Assembly: GCA_023379265.1 (NCBI GenBank)
Contig: JAMCUI010000009.1
Location: 252,908 to 316,907, forward strand
DNA from: Patescibacteria group bacterium
Lineage (GTDB): Bacteria; Patescibacteriota; Microgenomatia; 2-02-FULL-39-11
DNA length: 64,000 bases
Direction: 5' to 3'
Part shown: piece after piece, positions 6,798 to 61,389 of the stretch
Position numbering within the stretch: the first letter of the stretch is position 1
Layout of the letters: the number at the start of each line of letters is the position of its first letter
Program-made: the position numbers and the translations under genes
The notes under the pieces: model-generated
Seen by the model: only the letters and a program-made list of their open reading frames with translations
Database searches by the model: none
Told to the model about the DNA's origin: nothing

Positions 6798-6830
6798 ACT
6801 TGATATTTTGATTAGGTGTTTAGAGTAAAA

Positions 6831-8510: not shown

Positions 8511-8515
8511 ACAGT

Positions 8516-12790: not shown

Positions 12791-12794
12791 TATA

Positions 12795-16084: not shown

Positions 16085-16086
16085 AC

Positions 16087-31222: not shown

Positions 31223-31231
31223 CTTTCCCCT

Positions 31232-31259
31232 TTTACACGACCACCGGTTTTTATATACT
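31232..31259 (+). promoter_or_regulatory. Candidate sigma70-like promoter
   Basis: TTTACA (31232-31237), a 16-nt spacer, then TATACT (31254-31259), in the gap between the stop at 31222 and the ATG at 31279. Confidence 0.35.
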
Positions 31260-31278
31260 TACGTTATTCCATTTGCAT

Positions 31279-34236: not shown

Positions 34237-34265
34237 GGCAATTACTTATAGAAATTAATTTCCAG

Positions 34266-34973: not shown

Positions 34974-34986
34974 ACGCTTATTGATT

Positions 34987-36977: not shown

Positions 36978-36990
36978 ACGAGGTAAAAAT

Positions 36991-37809: not shown

Positions 37810-37815
37810 ATCTAA

Positions 37816-38862: not shown

Positions 38863-38940
38863 AAAAAGTTATTATACATTTTATTTTTTCTTATGACCAG
38901 CTGGCTAATTAAAAACCGATTGTACTGTTACTCTTACACT

Positions 38941-39828: not shown

Positions 39829-39831
39829 ATC

Positions 39832-42814: not shown

Positions 42815-42898
42815 AGTATATAGAACTTATTTCAAAACCCTAGCTCGCCGGATTTGAGTTATTATCCGTTAGTAAACGGTTTAGTTTTACAACAGCTA

Positions 42899-43696: not shown

Positions 43697-43733
43697 AAAT
43701 ATTTGATTTACATTCTATTTAATTATAATCTAT

Positions 43734-45716: not shown

Positions 45717-45717
45717 C

Positions 45718-46497
45718 TCACTTCCATACCTTCCACGGCGGATTTTCGCTGTTCCAGATGCCGTTGAGCTCGTCATATTCCTTGTTAGTGTCGACAGCAT
45801 ACCAGAAGCCGGTATGCTTGTAGATGGAAAGCTGAGAAATTTTGGCCAGTCGGGTGAGGGCCGCATGTTCCAACTCTGCCGGTTTCTGGTACTTAAAATA
45901 ATCCCTCTTGAAGACCATATATCCGCCGTTTGCCCAGTCGGACATATAAGGTTTTTCCTTAAACTCCACGATTTTGCTGTCGTTTCCTACTTTTACCACT
46001 CCAAACTTAAATTTTGGATGGATTCCAGTGATGGTTCCTATCGTGTTTTGTTTCTTATGGAACTGCACCAGTTTTCCGATATCAAGGTTCGTCACCCCGT
46101 CTCCATAAGTCACCATAAAATTTTTATCACTTTTAGGGATATAACTTTCACAAAGAAGAATCCTTTCTCCCGGAAGGGTATCCATACCCGTATCTACAAA
46201 AGTGATTTTGAAATCGTCTATTTCTTTTCTGTGTTCCCAGTGATAGGCGGTTTTGTGGGTTTTTGTCTCGAGTGTAAAATCTGTGGTAAAAGCTTTCTGG
46301 TTGAGGAAAAAATCCTTGATATAGTTGGCCTTATAACCTAAAGCCAAAATAAATTCGTTAAAGCCGTAATGGGCGTATATTTTCATAATATGCCAGATTA
46401 TTGGTTTTCCGCCAATATTTATCATCGGTTTTGGTTTGTATTCAGTTTCCTCTTTGAGTCTGGTACCTGTACCACCGCATAAAATTATTGTTTTCAT
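45718..46497 (-). CDS. ddhA: Glucose-1-phosphate cytidylyltransferase
   Basis: 'MKTIILCGGTGTRLKEETEYKPKPMINIGGKPIIWHIMKIYAHYGFNEFILALGYK' is near-identical in pattern to RfbF '[42 protein letters not shown]'. Confidence 0.85.
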   Translation of the reverse strand: MKTIILCGGTGTRLKEETEYKPKPMINIGGKPIIWHIMKIYAHYGFNEFILALGYKANYIKDFFLNQKAFTTDFTLETKTHKTAYHWEHRKEIDDFKITFVDTGMDTLPGERILLCESYIPKSDKNFMVTYGDGVTNLDIGKLVQFHKKQNTIGTITGIHPKFKFGVVKVGNDSKIVEFKEKPYMSDWANGGYMVFKRDYFKYQKPAELEHAALTRLAKISQLSIYKHTGFWYAVDTNKEYDELNGIWNSENPPWKVWK

Positions 46498-46659
46498 ACA
46501 GCCTGGATTATAGCAGAACTGGTTGTAAGTTGTTAGTTTTGGGTTGTGAGTGGAGAATGGCTAAATTTTATTATTTAAGAATTAGTAAATTTGTTCATTG
46601 ATCAAAAATTAGAAATTATAATTGAAAATTATACTTGGGCATTATGAGTAGTTCTATAG

Positions 46660-46665
46660 TATAAT
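46660..46665 (+). promoter_or_regulatory. Candidate -10 element (TATAAT) in the divergent intergenic region
   Basis: TATAAT at 46660-46665 within 'tctatagtataattatg', 12 nt upstream of the ATG at 46678. The 180-nt AT-rich spacer separates the minus-strand ddhA start from the plus-strand carbamoyltransferase start. Confidence 0.3.
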
Positions 46666-46677
46666 TATGAAGTTTTT

Positions 46678-48393
46678 ATGGGTACTGACGGTAAAATGCA
46701 TATTACTGTTTTGGGCATCCATGACGGGCACAATAGTGGAGCTGCTTTAGTGCGAGACGGTAAGGTTCTCTCGGCCATATCGGAGGAGAGACTGAATAAT
46801 ATAAAGAATTATTCCGGAGTGCCAGTACTTTCCATTGCCAAGGTTTTTGAAATTGCCGAAATACCTCCTGAGGAAACCGATCTTATCGCAATAGGATGTT
46901 TCGTCCGTGTGGGGCCACCCTATGCTGATATAAATTGGTTAGGTAGAATTCAGGTAGAATTGGCACCATATCTTCATTCACACTTATTTGCTAAAACATA
47001 TGTGAAATTGCTGCACAAATTCAGACAAACAGGTCGATTGAAGGATTTATTTGAAAGTTTGGGAATAGGGGATAAAAAAATCATATTTATAGAACACCAT
47101 CTAAGTCATGCAGCATGTGCTTATTACGGGTCAGGTTTCAAGGATGAGACACTGATTCTCACTCTTGACGGGTCAGGGGATGGGCTATCAGCGACTGTCT
47201 CAGTAGGAAAAGACTGTAGAATCAAAAGGATTGCCGAGACGACATTCTATGACAGTTTGTCAAACAATATATACAGTGAAATCACAGGGTACTTGGGGAT
47301 GAAGAGGTGGGAACATGAATACAAGGTGATGGGTCTTGCTCCATATGGTAGAGATGACGGTTTGGTAGATGAATTTAAAAAAATTGTCAGGATAAATCCG
47401 GCAAAAACTCTGGAGTTTCAGAATATTTTCGGCGCCTATTTATACGATGTTACCAAAAACTTGGTTCCAATTTTAGCCGGGCGGCGATTTGACAATATTG
47501 CTTGGGCGACTCAGAAATATTTTGAAGATTTGGTTTCCCAGTGGGTAAAAAATGCGATAGATCAGACCGGTGTTCATAATGTAGTCTGTAGTGGCGGGTC
47601 ATTTCTGAACGTTAAGGCGAATAAGGTGATAAGGGAATTGCCTGAAGTGAAAAAAGTCTTTTTTTACCCGGCCGCTGATGATGGCGGGACTCCGGCGGGG
47701 GCTGCCATTGAAGGGTATGTCAGGTTGTGCAGGGAAAAGAAAATAAAACCGGTGGTTGAGCCGATTGGTGATTTATATTTTGGTCAGCAATATTCTGACG
47801 AAAAGATAAGCGCTATTTTGAAAAAATCAAATTGGAAAAAAAAGGCAGTAAATTTAGGAAAAGGGATAGCAAAAGAGGTTGCTAGATTACTAGGTAAAGG
47901 AAAGATTGTCGCCAGGTTTGCCGGACGGGATGAGTGGGGTCCAAGAGCATTGGGAAATCATAGTATATTGGCAGATCCCCGCGATCTGCGTGTAATTTCA
48001 AAACTGAATTTTGCTATCAAACAGAGAGATTTCTGGATGCCTTTTGCCGCGTCCATTCTGGAGGAGGATGCTGGAGAATATTTGAAGGATTATAGGGGAC
48101 AAGCAAGATATATGATTGAAGCTTTCGATACAAAAGAAAAAGCAGCTGAAATTACGGCAGCTCTCCATCCTTACGACCTGACATGCCGGCCTCAGACAGT
48201 AAACGATTGGAATCCCGGTTACAGAAGTATATTGACGGAATTTAAAAAACTGACGGGAGTCTCAGGAATTCTAAATACTTCATTTAACCTGCACGGGTTT
48301 CCAATGGTGGGTACTCCTGACGTTGCTCTTTCCACTTTTGAAAATTCAGGATTGGATGCGCTTATTCTTGAAAATTTCTTAATTACTAGATGA
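46678..48393 (+). CDS. NodU/CmcH-family carbamoyltransferase
   Basis: 'ITVLGIHDGHNSGAALVRDGKVLSAISEERLNNIK' N-terminal signature. 571 aa; 'EHHLSHAACAYY'. Confidence 0.7.
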   Translation: MGTDGKMHITVLGIHDGHNSGAALVRDGKVLSAISEERLNNIKNYSGVPVLSIAKVFEIAEIPPEETDLIAIGCFVRVGPPYADINWLGRIQVELAPYLHSHLFAKTYVKLLHKFRQTGRLKDLFESLGIGDKKIIFIEHHLSHAACAYYGSGFKDETLILTLDGSGDGLSATVSVGKDCRIKRIAETTFYDSLSNNIYSEITGYLGMKRWEHEYKVMGLAPYGRDDGLVDEFKKIVRINPAKTLEFQNIFGAYLYDVTKNLVPILAGRRFDNIAWATQKYFEDLVSQWVKNAIDQTGVHNVVCSGGSFLNVKANKVIRELPEVKKVFFYPAADDGGTPAGAAIEGYVRLCREKKIKPVVEPIGDLYFGQQYSDEKISAILKKSNWKKKAVNLGKGIAKEVARLLGKGKIVARFAGRDEWGPRALGNHSILADPRDLRVISKLNFAIKQRDFWMPFAASILEEDAGEYLKDYRGQARYMIEAFDTKEKAAEITAALHPYDLTCRPQTVNDWNPGYRSILTEFKKLTGVSGILNTSFNLHGFPMVGTPDVALSTFENSGLDALILENFLITR

Positions 48394-49577
48394 AAATTCT
48401 TCAATTAGTCCCCTACTTTTATCCAGCTCTTTCAGTTGGAGGAAGCGCGACAGCGGTCTATAGTCTCTCCGGAGAGTTGGTCAAGCGTGGTCACAAAGTA
48501 ACCGTATATACGACTGATGTTAACCATAGCATGCCGGAAAAGAAAATGCTGGTAAATAAAAGAGTCAGGATTGGTGGTTTTGATGTTTATTATTTCAGAA
48601 ATATATCAAATAGTCTTGCGTTTAGAAACCATATTTTTTTCCCTCCCTATTTTTTCACTGAGATAATCAGACACATTACCGATTTTGATATTGTCCATAT
48701 GCATGAAATTTACACCCTTATGCATCTCTGGACAGCTTTTTTGGCAAGAAAACAGGGGATTCCGTATATTTTGACAGGACACGGTACGGCAGTGTTGGGT
48801 GAAAAAGAAGGTAATATGGGAAGAAAAAAGTTGTTTTACTCTTTTGGAGGAAAAAAACTTCTATTGGGTGCATCAAGGATTGTCGCTTTGACTGAGAAGG
48901 AAAAAAGGTCTTACCTTAAACTGGGAGTGGAAGAAAAAAATATTAGGGTTATCCCAAACGGTATAAACCCAGAATTATTCCACAAACTGCCTAAAAAAGA
49001 AGTGTTTAGAAATAAAATGCGACTAGTGAAGGATGATTGTGTCATACTTTATCTAGGAAGACTTCATGCAAAAAAAGGAATTGAGCTTTTGATAAAATCC
49101 TTAAAACTCCTAAAGAATGAGCATTTGTTAGTAAAGTTGGTGATTGCGGGCCCAGTGGAGCAGGAGGATTATCTTAAAAGGCTAAAAACCATTATAGAGA
49201 AAGAAGGTCTTTCCCAAAACGTGATTTTTACAGGCAACCTGACAGGAAAAGAAAAAATGGAAGCTTATTCCAGTGCGGATATATTTGCTCTGACATCGTA
49301 CTCCGAAGGACTGCCCGTTTCGGTTCTGGAGGCCGCTGTCTGCGGACTTCCACTTCTTTTATCCGAAAATTCAGGGGTGCCGATGATAGAAAAATATAAC
49401 GCCGGGGTATTAGTGAAAAATGATTTAGACAGTATTGTAAAAGGTCTGGAAAGAATTTTGAAAAAGGATAATTTCCGCAGATATTACGGAGATAATGCCA
49501 AAAAGATGGCGCAAAAAGAATATTCTATTTCCCGGACAGCTTTTATGATTGAAAAAGTTTATAAAGAGTTTGTGTAA
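48390..49577 (+). CDS. GT4-family glycosyltransferase
   Basis: 'MKILQLVPYFYPALSVGGSATAVYSLSGEL' and 'SYSEGLPVSVLEAAVCGLPLLLSENSG'. ATGA overlap. Confidence 0.75.
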   Translation: MKILQLVPYFYPALSVGGSATAVYSLSGELVKRGHKVTVYTTDVNHSMPEKKMLVNKRVRIGGFDVYYFRNISNSLAFRNHIFFPPYFFTEIIRHITDFDIVHMHEIYTLMHLWTAFLARKQGIPYILTGHGTAVLGEKEGNMGRKKLFYSFGGKKLLLGASRIVALTEKEKRSYLKLGVEEKNIRVIPNGINPELFHKLPKKEVFRNKMRLVKDDCVILYLGRLHAKKGIELLIKSLKLLKNEHLLVKLVIAGPVEQEDYLKRLKTIIEKEGLSQNVIFTGNLTGKEKMEAYSSADIFALTSYSEGLPVSVLEAAVCGLPLLLSENSGVPMIEKYNAGVLVKNDLDSIVKGLERILKKDNFRRYYGDNAKKMAQKEYSISRTAFMIEKVYKEFV

Positions 49578-49579
49578 TT

Positions 49580-51532
49580 ATGTGCGGAATTGCAGGAATC
49601 TATAATTTCGATAAAAGAAGTGTTGAGTCTTATGTTATTCACAGGATGAACAATGTCATGGTGCATAGAGGTCCTGATGGTCAAGGTGAACATTTGGAAG
49701 AAAATATCGGCTTGGCAAACCGCAGGCTGGCAATTATTGATCCTACAACAGCCGGAAACCAACCCATGGCGACCGCTGATGGGACACTCTGGATTACGTT
49801 TAATGGAGAGATATTTAATTTCGAAAAGCTGAAAAAAGATTTAATAGGTAGGGGTTATCATTTCAGATCACACACTGATACTGAGGTAGTATTAAACGGA
49901 TACAGGGAATACGGACACATGTTTGTAAAAAAACTTATCGGCCAGTTTGCCTTTTGCATCTGGGACAGGAGACAATCAAGGTTTATACTGGCCCGTGACC
50001 AGTTGGGCGTAAATCCTCTCTACTGGACCAGAATAGGTAACGCTTTTATTTTTGCCTCAGAATTGAAGGCAATATTGGCGTCAGGGCTGGTCAAAAAGGA
50101 GATAAACCCCGAGGCTTTACATCATTATCTTTCTATATTTTCCATCCCCAGTCCCATGACGATAATAAAAGGTGTAAATAGTCTTTTGCCGGGTAGAGTG
50201 ATGACGGTGGATAAAGGAGGCGTCAGGATAGAAAAGTACTGGGAACTCCCCGTTGGTTTATGGCAGAATAAAAACATTTCGGAAGGAGAGGAGATAGAGG
50301 AATTAAAAAGTCAACTGGTATCTGCAGTATCCTATGCCAAGGTATCAGATGTGCCGGTAGGCGCGTATCTCTCAGGTGGCGTGGATTCCTCGACAGTTGT
50401 TGCGCTTCTTTCCATGTCGCAAACCAAGCCCGTAAGGACATATTCTCTCTGGTCAGAGGGTGGTGAGGCTTATGATGAAAGAAAATACGCCAGCCTCGTT
50501 GCAAAACGTTACGGGACTGTTCATACAGAGTTTACGGTATCTCAAAGTGATTTAATAAGCAGCCTTCCTGAAATTATCTATTACTTTGATCAGCCAACAG
50601 GTGGATCACTCGAGACTTATTTTATCTCCCGATTGGCAGCCAAAGACGTAAAAGTTGCATTATCTGGACTCGGGGGCGATGAACTTTTTGCCGGATATCA
50701 TAGTGAACTATACAATACCAAGTCTATAGGAGACATATACAACCATATTCCTCCGGCTCTCCGTTCACTCCTTTTTTTACTGATGAAAAGAATTGCTTTC
50801 CGGTCAGACTGGAAAAAAGTTTTGTCAGTATCACAGGATTTTTTTAACCTGCCGACTCTGGTACGGCGTAGCCTTTATCTTTATTTTGCTTATCAGGAGG
50901 AAGAGAAAAAAAATCTTTATAGCAAGTCTTATCTTTCGCTGCAAAAGGGGAGTTACAGTACTCAAAGTTACTTCGAAGGACTTTATCAGAAAATAAAAGG
51001 CTGGCATCCGGTAGATCAACTAAACTATATTGACCTGAAAAGCTATACCAGAGACGATTTGCTTTTGGGTATGAATATGATGAGTATGGCAAATTCTCTC
51101 GAGGCAAGAGTGCCCCTTCTTGACCCCAGACTGGTTGAGTTTTCCGCCAGAATCCACCCTTCCCGTAAATATAGAGATGGAATTTCCAAATATATTCTCA
51201 AGAAAGCCGTAGCGGACTGGTTGCCAAAGGAAGTGGTAAATCACAAAAAAACCGGTTTTGCCATTCCTAGAGTGATTTATATGAAAGGAATATTGAAACC
51301 TTATATAAAATCAGTTTTGAGCCCAGAGTCCTTAAAGAACAGAGGAATATTCAATGATAAATATATTACCGAAGTGGTGAATAAATTTTATGGTTCAAAA
51401 CAGGGCAAGATGCTCTGGAGTGAGCATTTGCGCGTCTGGATACTTTTTGTATTTGAGCTCTGGTGCCGGATCTATCTGGATAATACAAAAATCGCCAAAC
51501 CGGCAGTCACGTTGGATGATCTTGCCATATGA
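49580..51532 (+). CDS. Asparagine synthase (glutamine-hydrolysing)-like amidotransferase (AsnB/WbpS type)
   Basis: 'MCGIAGIYNF' Ntn Cys nucleophile, 'HRGPDGQG', 'RRLAIIDP', and 'YLSGGVDSS' PP-loop ATP pyrophosphatase motif. Confidence 0.8.
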   Translation: MCGIAGIYNFDKRSVESYVIHRMNNVMVHRGPDGQGEHLEENIGLANRRLAIIDPTTAGNQPMATADGTLWITFNGEIFNFEKLKKDLIGRGYHFRSHTDTEVVLNGYREYGHMFVKKLIGQFAFCIWDRRQSRFILARDQLGVNPLYWTRIGNAFIFASELKAILASGLVKKEINPEALHHYLSIFSIPSPMTIIKGVNSLLPGRVMTVDKGGVRIEKYWELPVGLWQNKNISEGEEIEELKSQLVSAVSYAKVSDVPVGAYLSGGVDSSTVVALLSMSQTKPVRTYSLWSEGGEAYDERKYASLVAKRYGTVHTEFTVSQSDLISSLPEIIYYFDQPTGGSLETYFISRLAAKDVKVALSGLGGDELFAGYHSELYNTKSIGDIYNHIPPALRSLLFLLMKRIAFRSDWKKVLSVSQDFFNLPTLVRRSLYLYFAYQEEEKKNLYSKSYLSLQKGSYSTQSYFEGLYQKIKGWHPVDQLNYIDLKSYTRDDLLLGMNMMSMANSLEARVPLLDPRLVEFSARIHPSRKYRDGISKYILKKAVADWLPKEVVNHKKTGFAIPRVIYMKGILKPYIKSVLSPESLKNRGIFNDKYITEVVNKFYGSKQGKMLWSEHLRVWILFVFELWCRIYLDNTKIAKPAVTLDDLAI

Positions 51533-52689
51533 AAATTGTTCACCTTATTGATTATTTCCAGCCCCAAGTAGGTTACCAGGAGACATTTTTGGCAAAAGAG
51601 CATAGAAAAGCAGGGCATGACGTATGTGTGGTAACGTCAGACAGGTATTTCCCTTTTGAAGGATACAGATCATCATATTTTTCTCTTTTGGGTGAGAGAT
51701 ATGTGGGGGAGGGAGAAAGAAATGAGAATGGGATAAGGACTGTGAGATTAAAGAATATTGAATTTCCCGGGACAAATCTGATTTATCTCTTGAAATTAAA
51801 AAGGACATTAGCAGATATTTCACCTGACGCAGTTTTTTGTCATGGGATGTATTCTATTACGTCTTATTTTGCAGCCAAAATCAAAAATGAGTTGGGATAT
51901 AAGCTGGTTTATGATACTCATGCGGCGGGATTTAATACACAATTTGGTACTTTTTTGAAAAAGGCTTACCGTTTTTTCTTTCGAAAATTTGCCGTGCCCC
52001 TCATCAAAGATCAGGCTGACAGTATTTTTGCCATAGGCGAAGCGGAGCAGGATTTTATCTGCACTGAATTCGGGTTAAATCGGAATCACGTTTCAATAAT
52101 AAGGCTTGGGGTGGATACCGAATTATTTACGGCAAGTGTGGTTAAAAGAAAGGAAATAAGGAAAAAAATGGGAGTTGCGGCTGACGGTGTTGTCTGTATT
52201 TTCTCAGGGAAAATCAGTCCCAGAAAAGATATTGAGACTCTACTTCTGGCGGTTAAAAAAATAAATGATACTAAAATCAAGGTACTTCTGGTGGGAGGCG
52301 GTAAAACGAATCATGTATCAGACCTGAAAAAGATTCTTGACGCAAAAGAGCTGATTGTTGAACATTTTGTAAGCAATGATAAATTACCCGATTATTACAG
52401 CGCCGCCGATATTGCGGTCTGGCCGGGAGACCCGTCACAGGGGATGCTTGAAGCAATGTCCTCTTCACTGCCGCTTATAGTTCCTGAATGGTACGGTTCT
52501 GAATTTTTGCAAAAAAGCGGGGGCGTACTTTTTTTCAAAAGAAAAGATATTCGTGGTTTAGCACAAAAAATAGCCAAATTATCGTATAATAAGAACAAAA
52601 GAAAGGAAATCGGAATGAATGCCCGATATTATATCGGGAGGTATTTCAGTTGGAAAGAAATTGCACGGCAGACTTTATCTCTCTTGTGA
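51529..52689 (+). CDS. GT4-like (GT-B fold) glycosyltransferase
   Basis: 'MKIVHLIDYFQPQVGYQE...GHDVCVVT' and 'DPSQGMLEAMSSSLPLIVPEW'. Confidence 0.65.
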   Translation: MKIVHLIDYFQPQVGYQETFLAKEHRKAGHDVCVVTSDRYFPFEGYRSSYFSLLGERYVGEGERNENGIRTVRLKNIEFPGTNLIYLLKLKRTLADISPDAVFCHGMYSITSYFAAKIKNELGYKLVYDTHAAGFNTQFGTFLKKAYRFFFRKFAVPLIKDQADSIFAIGEAEQDFICTEFGLNRNHVSIIRLGVDTELFTASVVKRKEIRKKMGVAADGVVCIFSGKISPRKDIETLLLAVKKINDTKIKVLLVGGGKTNHVSDLKKILDAKELIVEHFVSNDKLPDYYSAADIAVWPGDPSQGMLEAMSSSLPLIVPEWYGSEFLQKSGGVLFFKRKDIRGLAQKIAKLSYNKNKRKEIGMNARYYIGRYFSWKEIARQTLSLL

Positions 52690-52699
52690 AAAGGAAAAG

Positions 52700-53524
52700 A
52701 TGGATACTAAAGAAATTGTCATCAGGCCCAAATCATCATGGAATTTTATCGATTTTGCAGAGCTTTGGCGGTTCCGGGAGCTTTTCTATGTTTTTGCATG
52801 GAGGGATATAAAAGTCCGTTATAAACAGACTTTGTTGGGAATACTATGGGTAGTTTTCCAGCCTTTGGTGAGCACATTCATTTTTACCGTCTTTTTCGGC
52901 AACCTGGCCAAAATTTCTTCAGGCAAACTGCCTTATGCGCTTTTTGTGCTGGCTGGTCTGGTTTTCTGGAACTTTTTCTCCAGCGCACTCTCCCACGCTG
53001 CGACCAGTATGGTAGGAAGCGCCAATATTTTTCAAAAAGTATATTTCCCCAAAATGATTCTGCCCCTGTCAGCCATTTTGACCAGTTTTGTCGATTTTCT
53101 TATAAATTTAGCTATGCTACTTCTGGCGGCTATTGTGTTGGGGTATTACCCCAGTCTATCAGCGCTGATAATTTTTCCCATGGCGGTTGTAGTGACCGCC
53201 ATTACTGCAGCCGGTCTGGGACTTCTATTGACCTCCATAAACATCAAATATAGGGATGTGGGGTACATTTTGCCTTATTTTATACAGCTTCTTTTGTTTC
53301 TGACTCCGGTCATTTATCCCATTACAATTCTTTCCCAAAGCCACAGGTTTATTATGGCCTTAAACCCCATGACTTCCGTCATTGAGGCTTCCCGGACAGT
53401 TTTTTCCGGAGCAACTTACGATCCTGTTTATATGGTGGTTTCATTTATATCTGCCCTGGTAATCCTGTCCGTAGGGATTTTGTATTTTAATAAAACTGAA
53501 CAGTTTTTTGCAGATATTGTTTAA
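52700..53524 (+). CDS. wzm: ABC-2 type polysaccharide exporter permease (Wzm/TagG/KpsM-like)
   Basis: 'WRDIKVRYKQTLLGILWVVFQPLVSTFIFTVFFG' and six hydrophobic segments. ATG at 52700 with an AAGGAAAAGA RBS, right after the upstream stop. Confidence 0.75.
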   Translation: MDTKEIVIRPKSSWNFIDFAELWRFRELFYVFAWRDIKVRYKQTLLGILWVVFQPLVSTFIFTVFFGNLAKISSGKLPYALFVLAGLVFWNFFSSALSHAATSMVGSANIFQKVYFPKMILPLSAILTSFVDFLINLAMLLLAAIVLGYYPSLSALIIFPMAVVVTAITAAGLGLLLTSINIKYRDVGYILPYFIQLLLFLTPVIYPITILSQSHRFIMALNPMTSVIEASRTVFSGATYDPVYMVVSFISALVILSVGILYFNKTEQFFADIV

Positions 53525-53527
53525 GAT

Positions 53528-54817
53528 ATGGAAACAATGATCAAAGTCAATAAATTGTCTAAAAAATACAGGTTCGGGCAAAACCAGCCGTACAATACTT
53601 TGCGCGATACTCTGGTTGGTCTGGTGCATAACCCCAAAAATATTTTCGGAAAAAGGAAGCATGAGGAAGGACAGTTGGCCGAAAATGAATTCTGGGCCCT
53701 CAAAAACATTTCCTTTGATGTTGGCGAAGGGGAAGTGTTGGGGATAATAGGAAAAAACGGTGCGGGCAAAAGTACTCTTCTTAAGGTTCTTAGCCGCATT
53801 ACCCCTCCAACAGAAGGTGAAATTAGGCTAAGGGGAAGAGTGTCAAGTCTGCTTGAGGTGGGTACGGGTTTTTCGGGAGAATTAAGCGGTAGGGAGAATA
53901 TATATCTAAACGGAGCCATATTAGGAATGACTAGGAATGAAATTAGGCGCAAGTTTTCCCAAATTGTGGATTTTGCCGAAGTGGGAAAATTTATCGATAC
54001 GCCGGTAAAATATTATTCTTCAGGCATGTATGTCAGGCTGGCATTTGCGGTGGCGGCACACCTTGAACCGGAAATACTTCTGGTGGATGAAGTGTTGGCG
54101 GTGGGAGATGTTGGTTTTAGGAAAAAAAGCATGGGGAAGATGAGGGAGATATCCAAATCATCGGGGCGTACTATACTTTTTGTCAGTCATGATATGTCTT
54201 CAATCCAAAATATATGTTCACGGGCAATTTTGCTAAGAGACGGAAAATTAGCATACAGCGGTTATGCCGATGAGACTATAAAAAAATATCTTGAGGAAAG
54301 CGGGGGAGAGACTGCCGATAAATGGTTGGAATGGAAACCCGAAGCTTCAGGAAGATATCCTTACGGTGAAATTATAAAACTTAAAAAGTTTTATATTAGC
54401 GATGTTGCCGGGAAGACGGTAAAAGGCAGATTGTTTAATAGCAAGCAGTATTTCGTCAATATTGACGCTGATTTTAAAAAAAGGGACTCGCGTCTGGTTT
54501 TTGCCGTTGCCTTTTATGATGAAAAGCAGACAGTACTTTTTGCCTCAGATATAAACGATAACGGTTTAGTTGATTTTGGAACTATAAAACCGGGTCATAT
54601 CAAACTTCAATTCCTCCTGCCGGTCGAATTACTTTCAAATGAAACATACGAAATTGAGTTGTTGTGCGCTTTGCATCACGTCGGTTGGATATTTCCGCCC
54701 AACAACGACTGCCGTCTGAAGTTTAGTTTTTTCCGGGACAAGGATGACAATCCTTATTCCAGTGATACGCGAATGGGGCTTTTGGCACCGGTATTAAAAT
54801 GGTCGGTTATTACCTGA
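53528..54817 (+). CDS. wzt: ABC exporter ATPase (Wzt/TagH-like) with ~170-aa C-terminal carbohydrate-binding-type extension
   Basis: Walker A 'GIIGKNGAGKST', signature 'YSSGMYVRLAF' and Walker B 'ILLVDEVLAVGD'. The C-terminal tail beyond the ~250-aa NBD is predicted beta-rich ('KLQFLLPVELLSNETYEIELLC'). Confidence 0.8.
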   Translation: METMIKVNKLSKKYRFGQNQPYNTLRDTLVGLVHNPKNIFGKRKHEEGQLAENEFWALKNISFDVGEGEVLGIIGKNGAGKSTLLKVLSRITPPTEGEIRLRGRVSSLLEVGTGFSGELSGRENIYLNGAILGMTRNEIRRKFSQIVDFAEVGKFIDTPVKYYSSGMYVRLAFAVAAHLEPEILLVDEVLAVGDVGFRKKSMGKMREISKSSGRTILFVSHDMSSIQNICSRAILLRDGKLAYSGYADETIKKYLEESGGETADKWLEWKPEASGRYPYGEIIKLKKFYISDVAGKTVKGRLFNSKQYFVNIDADFKKRDSRLVFAVAFYDEKQTVLFASDINDNGLVDFGTIKPGHIKLQFLLPVELLSNETYEIELLCALHHVGWIFPPNNDCRLKFSFFRDKDDNPYSSDTRMGLLAPVLKWSVIT

Positions 54818-54824
54818 GAATTTT

Positions 54825-55685
54825 ATGGCTGATAGTGTTTCCAAAAAGAGTGATTATTCAATAGGGGTTGTAACCTTTCTTGATAGATACGAAGAGACTT
54901 TCAAAAAACTGGCAATAGATTTGGCCAGGTATTTCCCTGATGTGGAAAAAAACGTTATACTGAACGGTTTTCCCGACAAAAACAGGCAGCTTAAGTATCT
55001 TAAAGAAGCCACAGGTTTTCTTTCCGGTCTTGGTTTTAACCATGTTTTAACATTTGAAACGCACCAGTCTTTAGCCAGAGGTTGGAATCTGCTTGTTATA
55101 TTATCCTCAAAATCCAAGGTTCTCATATTAAATGATGATTGCCTGATGGGGCCTGGTTTTCGTAAGGAGTTTGAGACACAAAAGGGAAATAGAGATTGGA
55201 TTTTTATAAACGAGTCATACAGCCATTTTATGACTTCCAAAAACGTGGTTAGGAAAGTGGGTTGGTTTGACGAAAGGTTCAAAGGGATAGGCCACGAGGA
55301 TGGGGATTTTTCCAGACGTTGTGCTCTGGCCGGTTATCCATACGATGTAGGAATTGATTGTCCCACCCTGAAAAATCTTAAAGTAGAAAGCAGAGAAGTA
55401 AGCTATTTGGAAACAGATAACAATAACAAGAAAGGATTTCTAGGAAAAGTCAGGAATTATCTAAATAGAGAAAAGTCCGGCAGAAGCGGAAATTACTCCA
55501 CCTATAATGAATATTTTTTCAGAAAAAAGTGGAAACATGCCGACAGGCCGTTACCCGGCTATACGCTAATTCCCATCCGCCATCTGAAGAAATACCGCGG
55601 TATCAAGCCGGGCGCAGGCGCTTATTGCAAGCTGGCTCCCGGTATGGAAACACCGCTTTTTTATCCTCTTGATATTCTTAATTAA
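54825..55685 (+). CDS. GT-A fold glycosyltransferase (GT2-like)
   Basis: 'IGVVTFLDRY', 'LILNDDC' (DXD) and 'GWFDERFKGIGHEDGDFSRRCALAGY', which parallels the GT2 'G-FDE-F--Y-ED-D---R---AG' block. Confidence 0.5.
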   Translation: MADSVSKKSDYSIGVVTFLDRYEETFKKLAIDLARYFPDVEKNVILNGFPDKNRQLKYLKEATGFLSGLGFNHVLTFETHQSLARGWNLLVILSSKSKVLILNDDCLMGPGFRKEFETQKGNRDWIFINESYSHFMTSKNVVRKVGWFDERFKGIGHEDGDFSRRCALAGYPYDVGIDCPTLKNLKVESREVSYLETDNNNKKGFLGKVRNYLNREKSGRSGNYSTYNEYFFRKKWKHADRPLPGYTLIPIRHLKKYRGIKPGAGAYCKLAPGMETPLFYPLDILN

Positions 55686-55693
55686 AGCCGCCT

Positions 55694-56647
55694 ATGCAAA
55701 AAACCAAACTAGTTATCTATATTCCTTCCTACAACAGAGGACAAGTGTTGTCAGAACAGCTGGAAAGGATAGTAAACCAGTGGGGAAAATACAGGGATAG
55801 GATTCGTCTGGTAATCAGCGATAACTTTTCCAGTGATCCGGTATATAAAACATTGTCAGCTAAATTTATCCAAAAGAACATATCTTTCAGGCGAAACATC
55901 TCCAATATAGGTGGCAATGAGAATATTATGCAAGGGTTCCTTACTGCCGGGGAGGATGATTATCTATGGATACTTTCGGATGATGATATGCTGACTTCTT
56001 CTGCTCTTGAAGAGATTTTCTGGGGAATAGATAAGAATACAGATATTATACATATTGGTGAGACCGAAAGGATAATCCAAACAGAGTTAAGCCTGAATAA
56101 TGTTTTTACAATAACAAAAGGGGCAGGGTTTGGATTGACCAGCGTGGTAATTTTCAGCGTGAACTTCATAAAAGATTTTATATACTACGGCTTTGAGTAT
56201 ATGGATTCTTCTTTTCCCCATTTTGCCATACTTCTTTCTTCCCTGAGGGAACATAAAAAAGCCAAATTGACTATAGTCAGGCATAAATACGTTTTTACCA
56301 AAGAAACGGTTGCGACACACGGTTCCGGGGATTATTTTTTGAGCGCAGTGGGTTTTGGTTATTTGTCTGATTTTCTTGAGAAACCTAACCAGCGGAAATT
56401 TCTTTGGGATTGGATTACATCTACCTGGCCGCTATATTTTGCTGCCAGAAGACATTATCCTGCCGCTTTCCACAAATCTGAAGGTTATCTAAGGTCATTT
56501 GGATTACGATTTTTCTTTTTCCTTTTTTTTGCGGGAATACTTTACGGTTTGCAATCCGCGCAGAAAAAAATTCTTATGGCAGCTGTAGTTGAGGCAAAAA
56601 AATCCTCTTTTGGCCGAAGTATAATAGAGAGTTTGAAAAAACTTTAA
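55694..56647 (+). CDS. Family 2-like glycosyltransferase
   Basis: 'LVIYIPSYNRGQVL', 'LVISDNFSSD' and 'WILSDDDM'. Confidence 0.55.
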   Translation: MQKTKLVIYIPSYNRGQVLSEQLERIVNQWGKYRDRIRLVISDNFSSDPVYKTLSAKFIQKNISFRRNISNIGGNENIMQGFLTAGEDDYLWILSDDDMLTSSALEEIFWGIDKNTDIIHIGETERIIQTELSLNNVFTITKGAGFGLTSVVIFSVNFIKDFIYYGFEYMDSSFPHFAILLSSLREHKKAKLTIVRHKYVFTKETVATHGSGDYFLSAVGFGYLSDFLEKPNQRKFLWDWITSTWPLYFAARRHYPAAFHKSEGYLRSFGLRFFFFLFFAGILYGLQSAQKKILMAAVVEAKKSSFGRSIIESLKKL

Positions 56648-56845
56648 TAGTGATTAATCAATAAATAAGAAATTATTATTGTTTGGGCATAAAAATCAGT
56701 ATTTAAAAAGTGAAATCCTTACTTTTGAATATGTAATAAACATTAGTTTGTTTAAAAATTAATAAGTAAAGCGGTTTGTCTCAAGAAAAGGATTAAAAGT
56801 CCCAAAATAGTCAGCATACATACAATAGATTAAATTTCCGTTAAT

Positions 56846-57547
56846 ATGGTTAGAAAATACATCAATTCAGTTATAAGAATAATAGACAATTTATGGCAAA
56901 AAAATGATGATCTGCGACAGTTAATCTTTAGGCGAATGAAAAGATCTTACAGCCAATATTTCGAAGATTTAGAACTGGATAAAGCTTTTAAAAATAAAAC
57001 TCTTGGTTTTTATGTAGATGTTGGGGCAAACGACCCAAGAATTCTTTCCAATACGTATCATTTCTACTTAAAAGGATGGAGAGGAATAAACATAGAGCCT
57101 GATACAGATTTGTTTACAAAGTTGGAAAAATATAGAAAAGAAGATATAAATTTGAATATAGGAATAGCAAGAAGAAGAGGAAAAAGAAAATTCTTTAATA
57201 TTTCGGCTCCTACACTTTCTACTTTCTCCGAAATAACTGCAATAAGGTCAGAATCGGAAGGCTATAAGATAAACGAAATTAAATATATAGACGTAATTCC
57301 ACTGTCACAAATATTAGATAAGTATTTGGTTAATGGAAAGGTGGATTTTTTTTCTATAGATGTAGAAGGATATGAATCTGAAGTGCTTAGAAGTAATAAT
57401 TGGCGAAAATACAGACCTGAATTTATTATTATCGAAATAAACAGAAGTGGAAAGGAGATAAAATCATTCTTAGAATCAAAAATGTACAGACAGATTTTCG
57501 AAAATGGTACTAACGCAATATTTAGAGATAATAATCTTAAAAATTAA
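56846..57547 (+). CDS. FkbM-family SAM-dependent methyltransferase
   Basis: 'GFYVDVGANDPRILSN', 'NIEPDTDLF' and 'VDFFSIDVEGYESEVL'. Visibly lower GC than the neighbours and flanked by ~200-nt and ~115-nt AT-rich spacers. Confidence 0.65.
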   Translation: MVRKYINSVIRIIDNLWQKNDDLRQLIFRRMKRSYSQYFEDLELDKAFKNKTLGFYVDVGANDPRILSNTYHFYLKGWRGINIEPDTDLFTKLEKYRKEDINLNIGIARRRGKRKFFNISAPTLSTFSEITAIRSESEGYKINEIKYIDVIPLSQILDKYLVNGKVDFFSIDVEGYESEVLRSNNWRKYRPEFIIIEINRSGKEIKSFLESKMYRQIFENGTNAIFRDNNLKN

Positions 57548-57661
57548 GATTGCTAATACAAAGAAATTATTTATGAAATGTACGGTGCTAATGAAGTAAA
57601 AATCTGACAGGAAAAGATATAGTCATTCTTGAAAATTTTGGAGGAAGGTTAATACAAACTG

Positions 57662-58792
57662 ATGAATTTTATTCTAGCAATTTGCGTAGATATTCAGGCA
57701 TTCTATAAAAATAAAATTTTGGATGGTAATTATGCCCGTAAGTTTCCAGGCGCAGGTTGGGTATCAGAATTTCTTCCTTTAGCCAAAAAACGAGACGTCG
57801 ATGTAGCGACTGGAGACATTGCTTTAGAGATGGTACATGCCGGGAAATGGAAAGCTAAGGATATATTTGTAATTTCGGAACTTGATGCCAGCCAGGCAAA
57901 AGAACTGATTGGGCTCGGCGCCCGGCCATTTATACTTTCTGCTTTCGAATCACCCCTTATTGCCTATAATTTTTACGATAAACTGAAAGATTTATCGGTA
58001 AAGTTTCCTTATAGACTTCTTTTCCCGGGAGCTTTCGGGTTAGCAGCGGGAGATGGCAAAAACATGAGGGCGTATTTTCCGAATTTTGACCCGTCTGAAA
58101 TAAAAAGGCCTGTCGCGTGGGACAAAAGGAAATTTATTTGTATGGTGGCGGCAAATAAATTCTGGCGGGAAAAATTCGTTTTCCCTTTATATTTGTCACC
58201 TTTAAGGTACGCCAAGTGGCTGGCGTTTCAGCGGGAAAAAGTAACTTCTCCAACAAGAAGGTACGCAATAAAAAATGAGTTGCAGTCAAAGAGGTTTGAA
58301 GCAATTGAGTATTTCGGGAAAAGAAAAGAATTGGATTTATTTGGTTACGGTTGGAAGGATAGGGAGAGATTACCTGACGGTTTTAGAGAAAGATTAGATC
58401 CAATTCTTGATAAGATTAAACCAAATTCGTGTAAGGATAAAAATAGAACTATTTCGGGATATAAATATGCCGTCTGTTTCGAAAATACCGCATATCCGGG
58501 GTATATTACGGAGAAAATTATCGACTGTTTTACGGCAGGGGTGATACCGGTATACCTGGGAGCGCCGGATGTGGAAAAGTATATACCTCCTGAAACATTT
58601 GTCGATATGCGCAAATTTGATTCATGGGAGAAACTTGAGAGGAAATTAAAACGCATAAACGAACAAGAGGCTAAAAGGATGATTGAGGCAGGCAGAAAAT
58701 TCTTGATGGGCAAAGAGGGTATAAAATACAGCTTTTCCGGTTTTGCTAAAGATATTGATGATTTAGTTCAGAAAGAAATAAACAATCTATGA
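57662..58792 (+). CDS. GT10-family alpha-1,3(/4)-fucosyltransferase
   Basis: 'YKYAVCFENTAYPGYITEKIIDCFTAGVIPVYLGAPDVEKYIPPETFVDMRKFDSW' matches the FucT alpha-1,3 motif (compare Helicobacter FutA 'FHLCFENSQGYGYVTEKIIDAYFSHTIPIYWGSPSV'). A GGAGGAAGG sequence lies upstream. Confidence 0.8.
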   Translation: MNFILAICVDIQAFYKNKILDGNYARKFPGAGWVSEFLPLAKKRDVDVATGDIALEMVHAGKWKAKDIFVISELDASQAKELIGLGARPFILSAFESPLIAYNFYDKLKDLSVKFPYRLLFPGAFGLAAGDGKNMRAYFPNFDPSEIKRPVAWDKRKFICMVAANKFWREKFVFPLYLSPLRYAKWLAFQREKVTSPTRRYAIKNELQSKRFEAIEYFGKRKELDLFGYGWKDRERLPDGFRERLDPILDKIKPNSCKDKNRTISGYKYAVCFENTAYPGYITEKIIDCFTAGVIPVYLGAPDVEKYIPPETFVDMRKFDSWEKLERKLKRINEQEAKRMIEAGRKFLMGKEGIKYSFSGFAKDIDDLVQKEINNL

Positions 58793-59721
58793 AATATTCA
58801 AACGAAGATTTAGGAGTATTTATTCTTACTTATAATAGGCCGCGGTTATTGGAGCAGACGTTATTGAGCTTTGTTCACCAGACTATTAAGGGATTTAAAC
58901 TAACAGTGATTGATAATGGATCAACAGATAGAGAAATGAAGCAAATGAAAAAGAAAATTATTAATTGGGGATATAACTATATGAGACTCAGGAAAAATTT
59001 AAACCCAAGTCTGATCTTGGAACCAATAAAGCCGAAAATGAAAACAAAATTATTTATGCTTTTTCATGATGATGATTTAATACACCCTGATTACTTAAGA
59101 CAAGCAATAAATTTGTTCAACCGTTACCCTGAGACAATATTTATCGGCTCCGCAATGTCTTTTGACAGTCAGCCTGAAAAGTTATCTTGGCCTAATTTTA
59201 CTGGTGAGTTTGAGGTGTTTGATACAGTAAATGACTTTGCTGCATTTATTTATAAAGGATTTCCGCTTCATTTTGCTTCCGTCGTTTACGTAACTAGATA
59301 TTTCAAAGAGGCATGCAATCCTTTTGACGTGTATGGCAAAATAGCTGACAGACCTTTTTTATTTGATATGGCTGGAAATAAAAAGAGAGAGATAATTGTA
59401 CTAACGGAATGTTATATCAGATATCGTACTCACTATAACCAGGATTCGCAGAATGTAAATACCGGTCCTTTCAAGGATCAGCTTTTTGCACTGCACAGAA
59501 GATATCGCGAGCTTTTGGGTGATAATATTTTGACCGCAAACGGTAGGATTTTTGTCAGAAAAAATTACGAGTATTTATATTTAGAAGCGTTAAAATTAAA
59601 AAAAACCACATCCCCGGAAGAATATATTATAGAAGCTTTGGAAAAAGGCGCGACGACCCGGTTGGCTATAAATTACGGCAGACTGCATTTATATCTAAAA
59701 AGATTGCTAGGATATGGGTAA
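58789..59721 (+). CDS. Family 2 glycosyltransferase
   Basis: 'LGVFILTYNRPRLLEQTL', 'LTVIDNGSTD' and 'LFHDDDL'. ATGA overlap. Confidence 0.65.
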   Translation: MKYSNEDLGVFILTYNRPRLLEQTLLSFVHQTIKGFKLTVIDNGSTDREMKQMKKKIINWGYNYMRLRKNLNPSLILEPIKPKMKTKLFMLFHDDDLIHPDYLRQAINLFNRYPETIFIGSAMSFDSQPEKLSWPNFTGEFEVFDTVNDFAAFIYKGFPLHFASVVYVTRYFKEACNPFDVYGKIADRPFLFDMAGNKKREIIVLTECYIRYRTHYNQDSQNVNTGPFKDQLFALHRRYRELLGDNILTANGRIFVRKNYEYLYLEALKLKKTTSPEEYIIEALEKGATTRLAINYGRLHLYLKRLLGYG

Positions 59722-60715
59722 GAAAAAGAATATTAACATAATCTCAGAATCTGCAAAGTCTGGCAAAATTACGGGTCCGTATAAGGTATTCCTTAATACT
59801 TGCAAAGGGTTTGGCCAAATCGGCCAGCCATATACGGTTAATCACAATATTTATAGTTGCGAAAGGAATTGGATACACGATTCGGTCGGCGGATTTATGG
59901 AGATGGCAGTATCAGGTTTGCCGGGAGTGGTTGGACCCAACATATTTATTTTGCCAGATGATATTCCAAAGTATCGGCCCAAACTCAAAAACTGCATTTA
60001 TGTCCATCCAAGTGTTTGGCCGATAAGATTGTGGGAGAGATTAGGGTTTGATGAGTGTAAATTAGAAATATGGTCAGCAGGCATTGATATAGATTATTTT
60101 ATTCCGGAAAAAAAAGAAAAATCAAAACAGGTAATGGTATATTTTAAGGAACGTGAGGCCAAATTACTGGATAAAGTTTTGGAAGTTTTATCCTCAGAAA
60201 AAATTGAACCGGCTGTCATAAATTACGGTAATTACAAAGAAGACTATTATTTGGATACATTACAAAACTCAATTTTCGGAATTTGGCTGGGACGACACGA
60301 AAGCCAGGGTATAGCGATGCTAGAGGCGCTTTCGGCAGGATTGCCGCTTTTGGTGATTGACGTGAACTCTCTTTTTGAGGTATCCGCAGAAAACCATTAC
60401 AGGTTTCCTCCGGGTCTGAAGAATTTCCGTGTAACTAGCGCGCCATACTTCAGTGACAGATGCGGAATTATCATAAAGGATATAGGCAGATTGGAAGGGA
60501 CAGTTAGACAAATGACGGAAAACTACAAGAAATATAACCCTCGACAGTACATATTGGAAAATTTATCTCTAAGAAAATCAGCCCAAAGAATAGTAGGCCT
60601 GTTTGATAAATTGGAGAATGACGGATTTTTGCAAAAGTTTACAGGGTCGGTTGACAAAGAATTTCAATTAAGCGTCAGGTCAAAATTGTTACTCAAAATA
60701 AATAAATTTTTATGA
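59714..60715 (+). CDS. GT-B fold (GT4-like) glycosyltransferase
   Basis: 'GRHESQGIAMLEALSAGLPLLVIDVNSL' C-terminal GT-B motif. Confidence 0.55.
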   Translation: MGKKKNINIISESAKSGKITGPYKVFLNTCKGFGQIGQPYTVNHNIYSCERNWIHDSVGGFMEMAVSGLPGVVGPNIFILPDDIPKYRPKLKNCIYVHPSVWPIRLWERLGFDECKLEIWSAGIDIDYFIPEKKEKSKQVMVYFKEREAKLLDKVLEVLSSEKIEPAVINYGNYKEDYYLDTLQNSIFGIWLGRHESQGIAMLEALSAGLPLLVIDVNSLFEVSAENHYRFPPGLKNFRVTSAPYFSDRCGIIIKDIGRLEGTVRQMTENYKKYNPRQYILENLSLRKSAQRIVGLFDKLENDGFLQKFTGSVDKEFQLSVRSKLLLKINKFL

Positions 60716-61389
60716 GAGAAAATGTAAAAATCACAAATGTCCGGAAACTGCACCTGGGTTGCGGGGAAATATACCTGCCCGGTTATATAAACATAGATTT
60801 TCCCCAAAGCAAGCATACTGTCCAGGAAAATGCGAAAGTCGATCTTTATGCTGATATAAATAAGCTTAAATATAAGCCAAATTCAATAGGTGAGATAAGG
60901 TTGCACCATGTATTTGAGCATTTTGAGAGACCGGTAGCCTGCGCGCTTTTGGTTTCGTGGCGATCCTGGTTGACTGTAGGAGGAAGACTAAGAATTGAAG
61001 TGCCTGATTTTGACAGGACCGCATTGAATGTAATCAATCCCTTCACTAGTTTCCGGACGAAAACCGTGGCACTGAGGCATATTTTCGGCTCAAATGAAGC
61101 TTTGTGGGCGGTACACTTTGAAGGATGGTCAAAAAATCGGTTAACGGAAATTCTTGAGACGATCGGATTCAGATTGGTTAAAACGAGAAAGAATTCCTGG
61201 AAAGGAACATATAATATTGATATTACCGCAGTTAAGACGGAATCTGTTTTAAGTGTGGCAGATTATTATCGTCAGGTAAGGGATTATCTCGGTAATTTTA
61301 CCCTGGATGAGTCGGAAGGGGAAAAGCGCATACTGATGGTCTGGATGCAGAAATATAATAGACAGATTAAGTTATCATTTGCCAAATGA
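60712..61389 (+). CDS. Class I SAM-dependent methyltransferase
   Basis: 'KLHLGCGEIYLPGYINID' (motif I), 'LHHVFEHF' and 'GGRLRIEVPDF'. Confidence 0.6.
   Translation: MRENVKITNVRKLHLGCGEIYLPGYINIDFPQSKHTVQENAKVDLYADINKLKYKPNSIGEIRLHHVFEHFERPVACALLVSWRSWLTVGGRLRIEVPDFDRTALNVINPFTSFRTKTVALRHIFGSNEALWAVHFEGWSKNRLTEILETIGFRLVKTRKNSWKGTYNIDITAVKTESVLSVADYYRQVRDYLGNFTLDESEGEKRILMVWMQKYNRQIKLSFAK

Follow-up and report, generated by a model that had tools for sequence, protein, structure and literature searches.

The stretch analysed here, referred to as the window, comprises 64,000 nucleotides (nt) of contig JAMCUI010000009.1 (assembly GCA_023379265.1), positions 252,908-316,907 on the forward strand, and contains a pair of adjacent genes, wzm and wzt, that encode the permease and the ATPase of an ATP-binding cassette (ABC) exporter. 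The pair forms an ordinary export pump for sugar polymers, and its ATPase bears a divergent version of a known cap-checking domain; the one unusual aspect is a host that is labelled as a Patescibacteria bacterium with a tiny genome. Its parts, in coordinates of the window, are the following.

52700-53524, plus strand: wzm, ABC-2 type permease of 274 amino acids (aa); PF01061 (ABC2_membrane), E 1.4e-20.
53528-54817, plus strand: wzt, ATPase of 429 aa; PF00005, E 2.7e-22.
53528-54265, plus strand: nucleotide-binding domain of Wzt, residues 1-246; delimited by PF00005, the Aquifex aeolicus Wzt match, the ATPase motifs and the full-length structural model.
54266-54373, plus strand: hinge helix (residues 247-258) and linker (residues 259-282) of Wzt; delimited by the full-length model and conservation.
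54374-54817, plus strand: C-terminal beta-sandwich carbohydrate-binding domain of Wzt, of a divergent Wzt_C type, residues 283-429 and the stop codon.

Both open reading frames (ORFs) had been placed at these positions by an earlier model reading of the DNA letters (the sequence-only reading); they are present with matches to the expected families, and neither they nor the C-terminal extension of Wzt could have arisen by chance. Wzm contains six hydrophobic segments that are predicted to be transmembrane, and it matches the Wzm/RfbD permease model of NCBIfam (1.6e-21). An AGGA-like ribosome-binding site lies 5′ of the wzm ATG at 52700. An alternative ATG at 52619 would produce a 71-nt overlap with the preceding gene, which encodes a family 4 glycosyltransferase (GT4), and is further disfavoured by the NCBI annotation (274 aa), by the length of homologues (274-290 aa) and by the ribosome-binding site at 52700. 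The start of wzt is located 4 nt past wzm. A minus-strand ORF that overlaps wzt (53521-53952) lacks support and is regarded as spurious.

The ATPase motifs of Wzt are all in place, with a Walker A sequence (GKNGAGKS, residue 75), a signature motif (YSSGM, residue 163), a Walker B sequence (ILLVDE, residue 183), an H-loop (SHD, residue 220) and an intact Q-loop region. The best solved relative of the nucleotide-binding domain is A. aeolicus Wzt (E 9e-63), followed at lower rank by TagH/TarH, mycobacterial Wzt and KpsT. No equivalog cut-off of NCBIfam is reached by Wzt, and its top match in that collection is TagH (1.5e-61, far under the TagH cut-off). Together with the TagH and TarH structures that rank directly behind Wzt in a structure search with the full-length model, and with a weak match of Wzm to KpsM (1.5e-12), this raises the alternative that the pair is a TagGH/TarGH-like exporter of wall teichoic acid or a KpsMT-like capsule exporter. 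However, the window and its flanks yielded neither a Glyphos_transf gene (PF04464; TagF/TarL) nor a TagD-type gene, and none of KpsC, KpsS, KpsE and KpsD; this and the other absence searches covered all ORFs of at least 150 aa in the window and within 10 kilobases (kb) on either side. In addition, the Wzt_C beta-sandwich of this Wzt is missing from TagH, TarH and KpsT, and the Wzm/RfbD model fits Wzm better than does KpsM. An exporter of either of these kinds is highly improbable.

Beyond its nucleotide-binding domain Wzt possesses about 170 extra residues (approximately 259 to 429). The sequence-only reading had predicted a beta-rich extension of this size, and the extension is all-beta in both AlphaFold models. 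The first, of full-length Wzt, has a mean predicted local distance difference test score (pLDDT) of 87.2 and gives the domain limits listed above; the second, of the domain alone, was built on an alignment of C-termini cut from 52 homologues and displays ten beta-strands and zero helices (pLDDT 91.4, predicted template modelling score 0.86). The fold of the C-terminus had been set in advance as the test on which the sequence-only reading could fail, and it is predicted to be a beta-sandwich for which places 1-17 of a Foldseek search against the PDB are all occupied by Wzt carbohydrate-binding domains, those of E. coli O9a (2R5O), A. aeolicus (6O14, 8DKY, 7K2T and 8DKU) and Raoultella/Klebsiella O12 (5HNO and 5HNP). 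Generic immunoglobulin-like lipid binders rank only below these 17. When the full-length model is compared with the PDB, the seven best matches are all chains of full-length A. aeolicus Wzt; the alignments cover about 420 columns and have E values from 1e-34 to 4e-33.

Sequence comparisons place the domain at some distance from its solved counterparts, with which it shares 9-20% identity. Most close homologues of this Wzt carry no precomputed assignment to the Pfam family Wzt_C (PF14524), and 25 of 52 family members match PF14524 at E ≤0.01. In an hhalign comparison with the C-termini of ten PF14524-bearing Wzt proteins, the domain family is recovered with a probability of 96.4% (E 1.1e-9). 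Homology of the domain to PF14524 is thus supported by hhalign, yet the domain occupies a divergent branch under the gathering cut-off of that model. A domain profile searched against 1.84 billion representative sequences matched 1565 proteins at E ≤1e-3 and 147 at E ≤1e-30; among the full-length matches, the domain is always C-terminal, residing at about residues 250-430 of Wzt-sized ATPases (413-445 aa). The extension is therefore a genuine but divergent carbohydrate-binding domain of the Wzt type, with binding itself predicted, and the Pfam Wzt_C model under-detects this branch, which is sizeable (about 1,500 representative proteins at E ≤1e-3).

Ten residues of the extension are invariant or nearly so (W269, D344, G356, P365, Y374, W387, R415, G417, P421 and W425). 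Across the hinge and linker, where conservation was measured in 74 homologues, the linker Trp269 is invariant and the hinge Tyr254 nearly invariant. The alignment places Tyr254 at the “AYY” with which the hinge helix of A. aeolicus Wzt ends, a residue correspondence that is approximate; in that protein Tyr233, at the end of the hinge helix, contacts the O antigen and helps to hold it (PMC9445017). The last strand of the modelled domain (residues 426-428) is detached and follows a loop of lower confidence, and the tail of the protein retains a conserved G-x-L-A-P-V-L-x-W sequence. Both features would be consistent with, rather than proof of, an exchange of C-terminal strands between the partners of a dimer.

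Export that depends on a cap recognized by the carbohydrate-binding domain of Wzt is known from E. coli O8/O9a, from Klebsiella O3/O4/O5/O12 and from A. aeolicus, the caps being methyl, methyl-phosphate or 3-deoxy-D-manno-octulosonic acid (Kdo) groups (PMC9445017; PMC11231755). A passage of PMC11231755 that cites Mann et al. 2019 describes the capped-chain strategy as widespread across bacteria and glycan classes. The closest structural parallel is the A. aeolicus WzmWzt transporter (7K2T, 8DKU, 6O14 and 8DKY), in which, as in the Wzt of the window, a hinge helix and linker join the two domains. Its carbohydrate-binding domain is only 13-18% identical to that of the window, and its ligand, 3-O-methyl-mannose or -rhamnose, caps a rhamnan or mannan of lipopolysaccharide (LPS), whereas the glycan of the window is probably a complex heteroglycan. 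The A. aeolicus system also serves LPS, whereas the host of the window is labelled Patescibacteria and is presumed to have a single membrane. The Wzt proteins of E. coli O9a/O8 and Klebsiella O12/O4 (2R5O and 5HNO) have domains 9-12% identical to that of the window and operate with WbdD or WbbB terminators; in contrast, the window contains stand-alone methyltransferases and glycosyltransferases, and neither a coiled-coil kinase/methyltransferase nor a Kdo-transferase terminator was found.

By analogy with this family, cap-dependent export would be the best reading of the locus. With a probability of roughly two in three, Wzm and Wzt export a polyprenol-linked surface glycan that is completed on the cytoplasmic face and is read at its cap by the C-terminal domain of Wzt. 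The glycan would be built wholly on that face, on its polyprenol carrier, by the approximately 14 single-domain glycosyltransferases of the surrounding gene string. The C-terminal domain would then dimerise and bind the non-reducing end of the finished chain, so that only terminated glycans would be exported, which would amount to a quality-control checkpoint. Indirect support for cap binding comes from the conserved aromatic and polar residues of the domain and from the methyltransferase genes that lie beside wzt across the family. The models support the interpretation given by the sequence-only reading at the level of fold and architecture, with cap recognition following by analogy.

The wzm-wzt pair lies within a plus-strand string that includes the approximately 14 single-domain glycosyltransferases. 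The remaining genes of the string that fall within the window are listed here in order.

46678-48393, plus strand: NodU-type carbamoyltransferase; PF16861 4.2e-52, PF02543 2.2e-35.
48390-49577, plus strand: GT4 glycosyltransferase.
49580-51532, plus strand: AsnB-like amidotransferase; PF00733 1.8e-84.
51529-52689, plus strand: GT4 glycosyltransferase.
54825-55685, plus strand: GT2-like glycosyltransferase; its own PF10111 match is weak, and homologues carry PF10111.
55694-56647, plus strand: GT2 glycosyltransferase; PF00535 1.9e-11; kept in loci L003, L004, L006 and L010 (described below).
56846-57547, plus strand: FkbM-family methyltransferase; PF05050 1.2e-23.
57662-58792, plus strand: GT10 (fucosyltransferase-family) protein; PF00852 1e-16; kept in L003, L004, L006, L008 and L010.
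58789-59721, plus strand: GT2 glycosyltransferase; PF00535 9e-14; kept in related loci.
59714-60715, plus strand: weakly GT-B-like protein of 333 aa; weak PF00534; kept in related loci.
60712-61389, plus strand: small class I S-adenosylmethionine (SAM)-dependent methyltransferase of 225 aa; assigned by motifs and family annotation.
61386-62192, plus strand: GT2 glycosyltransferase; PF00535 1.8e-31.
62189-63367, plus strand: GT4 glycosyltransferase; PF00534 3.9e-14.
63352-64000, plus strand, running off the window end: Methyltransf_11/23 class I methyltransferase; PF08241 1.9e-10.

The genes from 46678 to 52689 abut or overlap and form the head of the same string as wzm and wzt. A promoter-like site precedes the carbamoyltransferase gene (46636-46665; weak evidence), and a scan for promoters and terminators yielded counts near the shuffled expectation and was uninformative. 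The GT2-like gene at 54825 starts 8 nt past wzt, has orthologues directly 3′ of wzt in L004, L006 and L010 (60-83% identity), and has named homologues in bacteria of the candidate phyla radiation (CPR). Downstream, the string runs on to position 21179 of a continuation contig (L001) that is 100% identical to the window where they overlap, and so extends about 9.4 kb beyond the window end. There the methyltransferase that begins at 63352 is complete (L001 11164-11964; 266 aa; 86% identical to its L010 orthologue) and is followed by a 306-aa protein, a GT11, a GT2, an MT_11/DUF268 gene, a second GT10 and a GT2. At the end of the string are a 778-aa membrane protein, Pfam-negative with 16 hydrophobic segments that resemble transmembrane helices, and then a DUF2142 membrane protein. 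The glycan locus extends past either end of the window and, with its flanks, spans at least 83 kb.

To place these genes in context, the window was compared with eight loci (L002-L010) whose Wzt domains are 38-90% identical to its own and with three controls from the wider family (L014-L016). Many of the loci share a module 3′ of wzt, consisting of a GT2-like gene, a GT2, a variable methyltransferase slot, a GT10 and a GT2, and continuing with the 333-aa protein, the 225-aa methyltransferase, a GT2 and a GT4. Methyltransferase genes adjoin wzt in otherwise unrelated loci of the domain family (L009, L014, L015 and L016), and 8 of 11 informative loci have a GT11 no more than about 10 kb from wzt.

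The capping candidates of the sequence-only reading, namely two FkbM methyltransferases (56846-57547 and 39832-41013), two class I methyltransferases (60712-61389 and, as it was then delimited, 63367 to the window end), a carbamoyltransferase and an AsnB-like amidotransferase, all correspond to real genes, including that at 60712-61389, which is identified by family annotation and a KLHLGCG motif though it has no Pfam match of its own. One of them, the FkbM gene at 56846, is disfavoured as the enzyme of an essential cap. It is absent from L010, which is syntenic with the window and has a 92% identical Wzt, and for that reason makes a poor candidate. The corresponding slot is empty in L003 and is occupied by an unrelated MT_11-like gene in L004 and L006; in L009 an FkbM gene lies directly 3′ of wzt. 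The segment from 56 to 58 kb has a guanine-plus-cytosine (GC) content of 0.33, the lowest in the right half of the window (neighbouring stretches, about 0.40), and the gene lies between two intergenic gaps (56647-57662) that are alone in the string in exceeding 100 nt. This segment looks like a swappable methyltransferase cassette, and the FkbM gene itself looks accessory and unlikely to make an essential cap.

The best candidate for a conserved O-methyltransferase of the glycan or its cap is instead the 225-aa protein encoded at 60712-61389. Besides KLHLGCG it contains an RLHHVFEH motif, and it belongs to a large, well-conserved family that is annotated as class I SAM-dependent methyltransferase, PF13489 or PF08241 being matched in about 25% of close homologues. 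Orthologues are present in L003, L004, L006 and L010, and another lies directly 3′ of wzt in the control locus L016. In the proposed mechanism, this enzyme would add a terminal O-methyl cap. The recurrence of methyltransferases and of GT10/GT11 genes beside wzt across the domain family favours an O-methylated, fucose-type terminal sugar; the best guess for the terminal epitope is accordingly an O-methylated sugar, which could plausibly be a 6-deoxyhexose or a residue of the fucose type, with a carbamoyl group or a 3,6-dideoxyhexose as alternatives.

Several observations weigh against cap-dependent export or against one of its parts. The score of Wzt against PF14524 is 21.2 bits for the full protein and 23.6 for the domain alone, below the gathering cut-off of 30.4. 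A profile of the domain family retrieved only noise from all PDB sequences (E 0.23) and no solved Wzt carbohydrate-binding domain, so that fold and profile-profile comparisons carry the link to the solved domains. Both AlphaFold models are of monomers. No WbdD- or WbbB-like, kinase, coiled-coil or multidomain terminator was found across the approximately 83 kb; the WbdD-like kinase/methyltransferase with a coiled coil that the sequence-only reading had proposed seeking is absent from the window and from the 10 kb on either side, and in place of a terminator the locus has its stand-alone methyltransferases, GT10/GT11 genes and carbamoyltransferase. Only wzm and wzt are common to all eight related loci; with no accessory gene universal, co-occurrence singles out no capping enzyme. 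Searches of the window and of 10 kb on either side revealed neither an initiating phosphoglycosyltransferase (PF00953/PF02397) nor a ligase (Wzy_C, WaaL or LCP); the initiator gene may sit elsewhere in the genome, as in E. coli. The labels of the metagenome-assembled genomes (MAGs) that carry the locus disagree, a syntenic copy (L010) occurring in a third-party annotation (TPA) MAG titled “uncultured Gammaproteobacteria bacterium”. Finally, this organism has, to our knowledge, no described ligand, cap or glycan structure.

Some of these points would suit an exporter in which the C-terminal Wzt_C homologue reads no cap, and instead binds internal repeats or the lipid-linked primer or serves only in dimerisation or ATPase regulation; export would then be uncoupled from chain termination. 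Such an arrangement would accord with the lack of a dedicated WbdD/WbbB-type terminator, with the mere 9-20% identity to solved carbohydrate-binding domains, and with the approximately 14 single-domain glycosyltransferases, which suggest a glycan of defined length that is perhaps made with neither ruler nor terminator. However, all Wzt carbohydrate-binding domains that have been studied bind a terminal epitope (PMC9445017; PMC11231755), conservation is strong at the aromatic and polar residues and at the hinge tyrosine, and genes for methyltransferases are found repeatedly right next to wzt in members of the family. A domain indifferent to the chain terminus is accordingly considered unlikely, and cap-dependent export is retained as the preferred reading.

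The route of assembly bears on this reading as well. The sequence-only reading had noted that Wzx, Wzy and Wzz genes are lacking, and this is correct for the window, where none of the three families occurs in any ORF of at least 150 aa; none was found downstream either. It does not extend to the upstream flank, since a Wzx-type (MOP) flippase (L011 5910-7358; PF13440 2.8e-51, PF01943 9.7e-27) lies approximately 1.9-3.3 kb before the window start, on contigs (L011 and L013) that are 99.97-100% identical to the window. The same flank contains epimerases, GT2 genes and a PMT_2 gene. A 562-aa Pfam-negative protein encoded after this flippase was considered as a Wzy and rejected, as it has a single, N-terminal hydrophobic segment, and no Wzy or Wzz was seen across the approximately 83 kb of the locus. 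The upstream Wzx points to a second translocation route in a composite locus rather than to a refutation of the ABC route. Overall, the locus looks to be composed of four parts, with Wzx and GT-C genes at the left, then a nucleotide-sugar block, then the ABC string that begins at 46678, and lastly further GT-C-like membrane proteins.

The nucleotide-sugar block is divergent from the string and includes the second FkbM gene.

32956-46497, minus strand: nucleotide-sugar block.
39832-41013, minus strand: second FkbM-domain protein, 393 aa.

The block encodes an RfbF-like glucose-1-phosphate cytidylyltransferase, a CDP-glucose 4,6-dehydratase, RfbH (635 bits against an equivalog cut-off of 423) and NeuB, and also an acetolactate-synthase-like thiamine diphosphate (ThDP) enzyme, a PtmA-like short-chain dehydrogenase/reductase, a GFO/IDH/MocA oxidoreductase and a Methyltransf_23 class I methyltransferase. 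The block is a probable source of unusual sugars for the exported glycan, and its content suggests a CDP-3,6-dideoxyhexose, possibly with yersiniose-like branching, plus a nonulosonic acid; the resemblance of the ThDP enzyme to YerE of yersiniose synthesis is an assignment of our own. RfbF, RfbG, RfbH and ThDP genes are found beside members of the close Wzt domain clade in 6 of 8 loci, L003, L004, L006, L007 and L008 among them, and in none of the three control loci, a sample that is far too small for statistics.

The set of extracytoplasmic glycosyltransferases encoded in the window is unusually dense. Eight tandem GT-C genes of the PMT_2/ArnT-like type lie on the plus strand at 6816-19316, seven of them full-length (537-586 aa) and one encoding a 289-aa fragment (8516-9385). 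Their products are mutually 27-40% identical, a level so low that the duplications must be old. YfhO-type genes are located at 3497-5809 and 22580-24232, a PIG-V-like gene at 26203-27399, and a gene for a 580-aa protein with eight hydrophobic, transmembrane-like segments and no Pfam match at 31192-32934. Once exported, the glycan may also receive decorations outside the membrane from the numerous GT-C enzymes of nearby genes. A GDP-mannose 4,6-dehydratase-like gene (19408-20337) co-occurs with two GT10 genes (57662-58792 and L001 15760-16701) and one GT11 gene (L001 12926-13759), these three being of fucosyltransferase families, and the combination suggests a fucosylated surface glycan of Lewis- or H-type-like character. 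Between positions 20350 and 21816 on the plus strand is encoded a 488-aa flavoprotein with amine-oxidase, NAD_binding_8 and weak UDP-galactopyranose mutase (GLF) matches, which may be a mutase-like enzyme for a furanose sugar.

The nature of the exported product depends on the identity of the host. Proteins identical to those of the window occur in two NCBI MAGs labelled “Patescibacteria group bacterium”. A profile search of genome contigs with a narrower alignment of the domain returned a single locus, L010 (CAZFNL010000137.1), which is syntenic with window positions 44812-64000 at about 79% nucleotide identity and encodes a Wzm and a Wzt that are 94% and 92% identical, respectively. Of the Patescibacteria and Gammaproteobacteria labels, one is probably wrong. 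Should the host be a mislabelled Gram-negative bacterium, the locus would encode a classical exporter of LPS O antigen feeding WaaL and Lpt, with the same transport and another product. The title of the L010 MAG agrees with this, as do RfbF, RfbG and RfbH, which are classic O-antigen genes, and the Gram-negative origin of the closest solved relatives. However, the two MAGs with identical proteins are independent and are both labelled Patescibacteria; most of the close homologues of neighbouring genes that bear a name come from CPR bacteria (Doudnabacteria, Magasanikbacteria, Saccharimonadia and WWE3); and the locus has YfhO-type and many PMT_2 GT-C genes, with no WaaL, Lpt or Kdo gene across its approximately 83 kb. 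A Gram-negative origin is thus improbable, and a Patescibacteria host is more likely, if unproven. Given that label, a glycan linked to the wall, a lipid or an S-layer is a likelier product than an LPS O antigen, and “O-antigen” is probably the wrong word for it.

Capped export from a single-membrane cell has a precedent among the S-layer glycan (slg) gene clusters of the Gram-positive bacteria Geobacillus stearothermophilus NRS 2004/3a and Paenibacillus alvei (PMC2943079). The S-layer glycan of G. stearothermophilus carries a 2-O-methyl cap that is predicted to be read by Wzt, and its transfer by Wzm/Wzt is an accepted cap-export model (PMC2943079). The slg clusters share with the window a Wzm/Wzt pair at the head of a tight glycosyltransferase string and a low GC content, and that of P. 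alvei includes an asparagine-synthase homologue (PMC2943079), comparable to the AsnB-like gene here. In G. stearothermophilus, however, cap methylation falls to one domain of the trifunctional WsaE, and that cluster holds a WbaP-type initiator and the oligosaccharyltransferase WsaB (Wzy_C family), neither of which was found here. An S-layer gene was likewise not identified in the window.

The mechanism proposed for this locus is not itself new, and its member here is divergent in sequence. A more specific proposal, that a reduced-genome CPR bacterium uses a capped-chain checkpoint for a non-LPS glycan and that the divergent clade of Wzt domains (about 14 clusters with 38-54% domain identity) reads a novel terminal epitope, is tentative and on present evidence doubtful; candidates for such an epitope are a 3,6-dideoxyhexose from the CDP pathway, possibly with YerE-like branching, and a carbamoylated or methylated fucose-type residue. 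A literature search returned no paper mentioning Patescibacteria together with Wzt.

On this reading, MAGs labelled Patescibacteria also encode the cap-reading checkpoint known from enterobacterial O antigens and from A. aeolicus. At more than 80 kb, the glycan locus around it would take up a very large part of a genome of about 1 Mb, and surface glycans are prime candidates for host attachment and phage evasion in episymbionts. If ligand-specific as predicted, the Wzt domain could itself be expressed and serve as a probe for the native terminal epitope.

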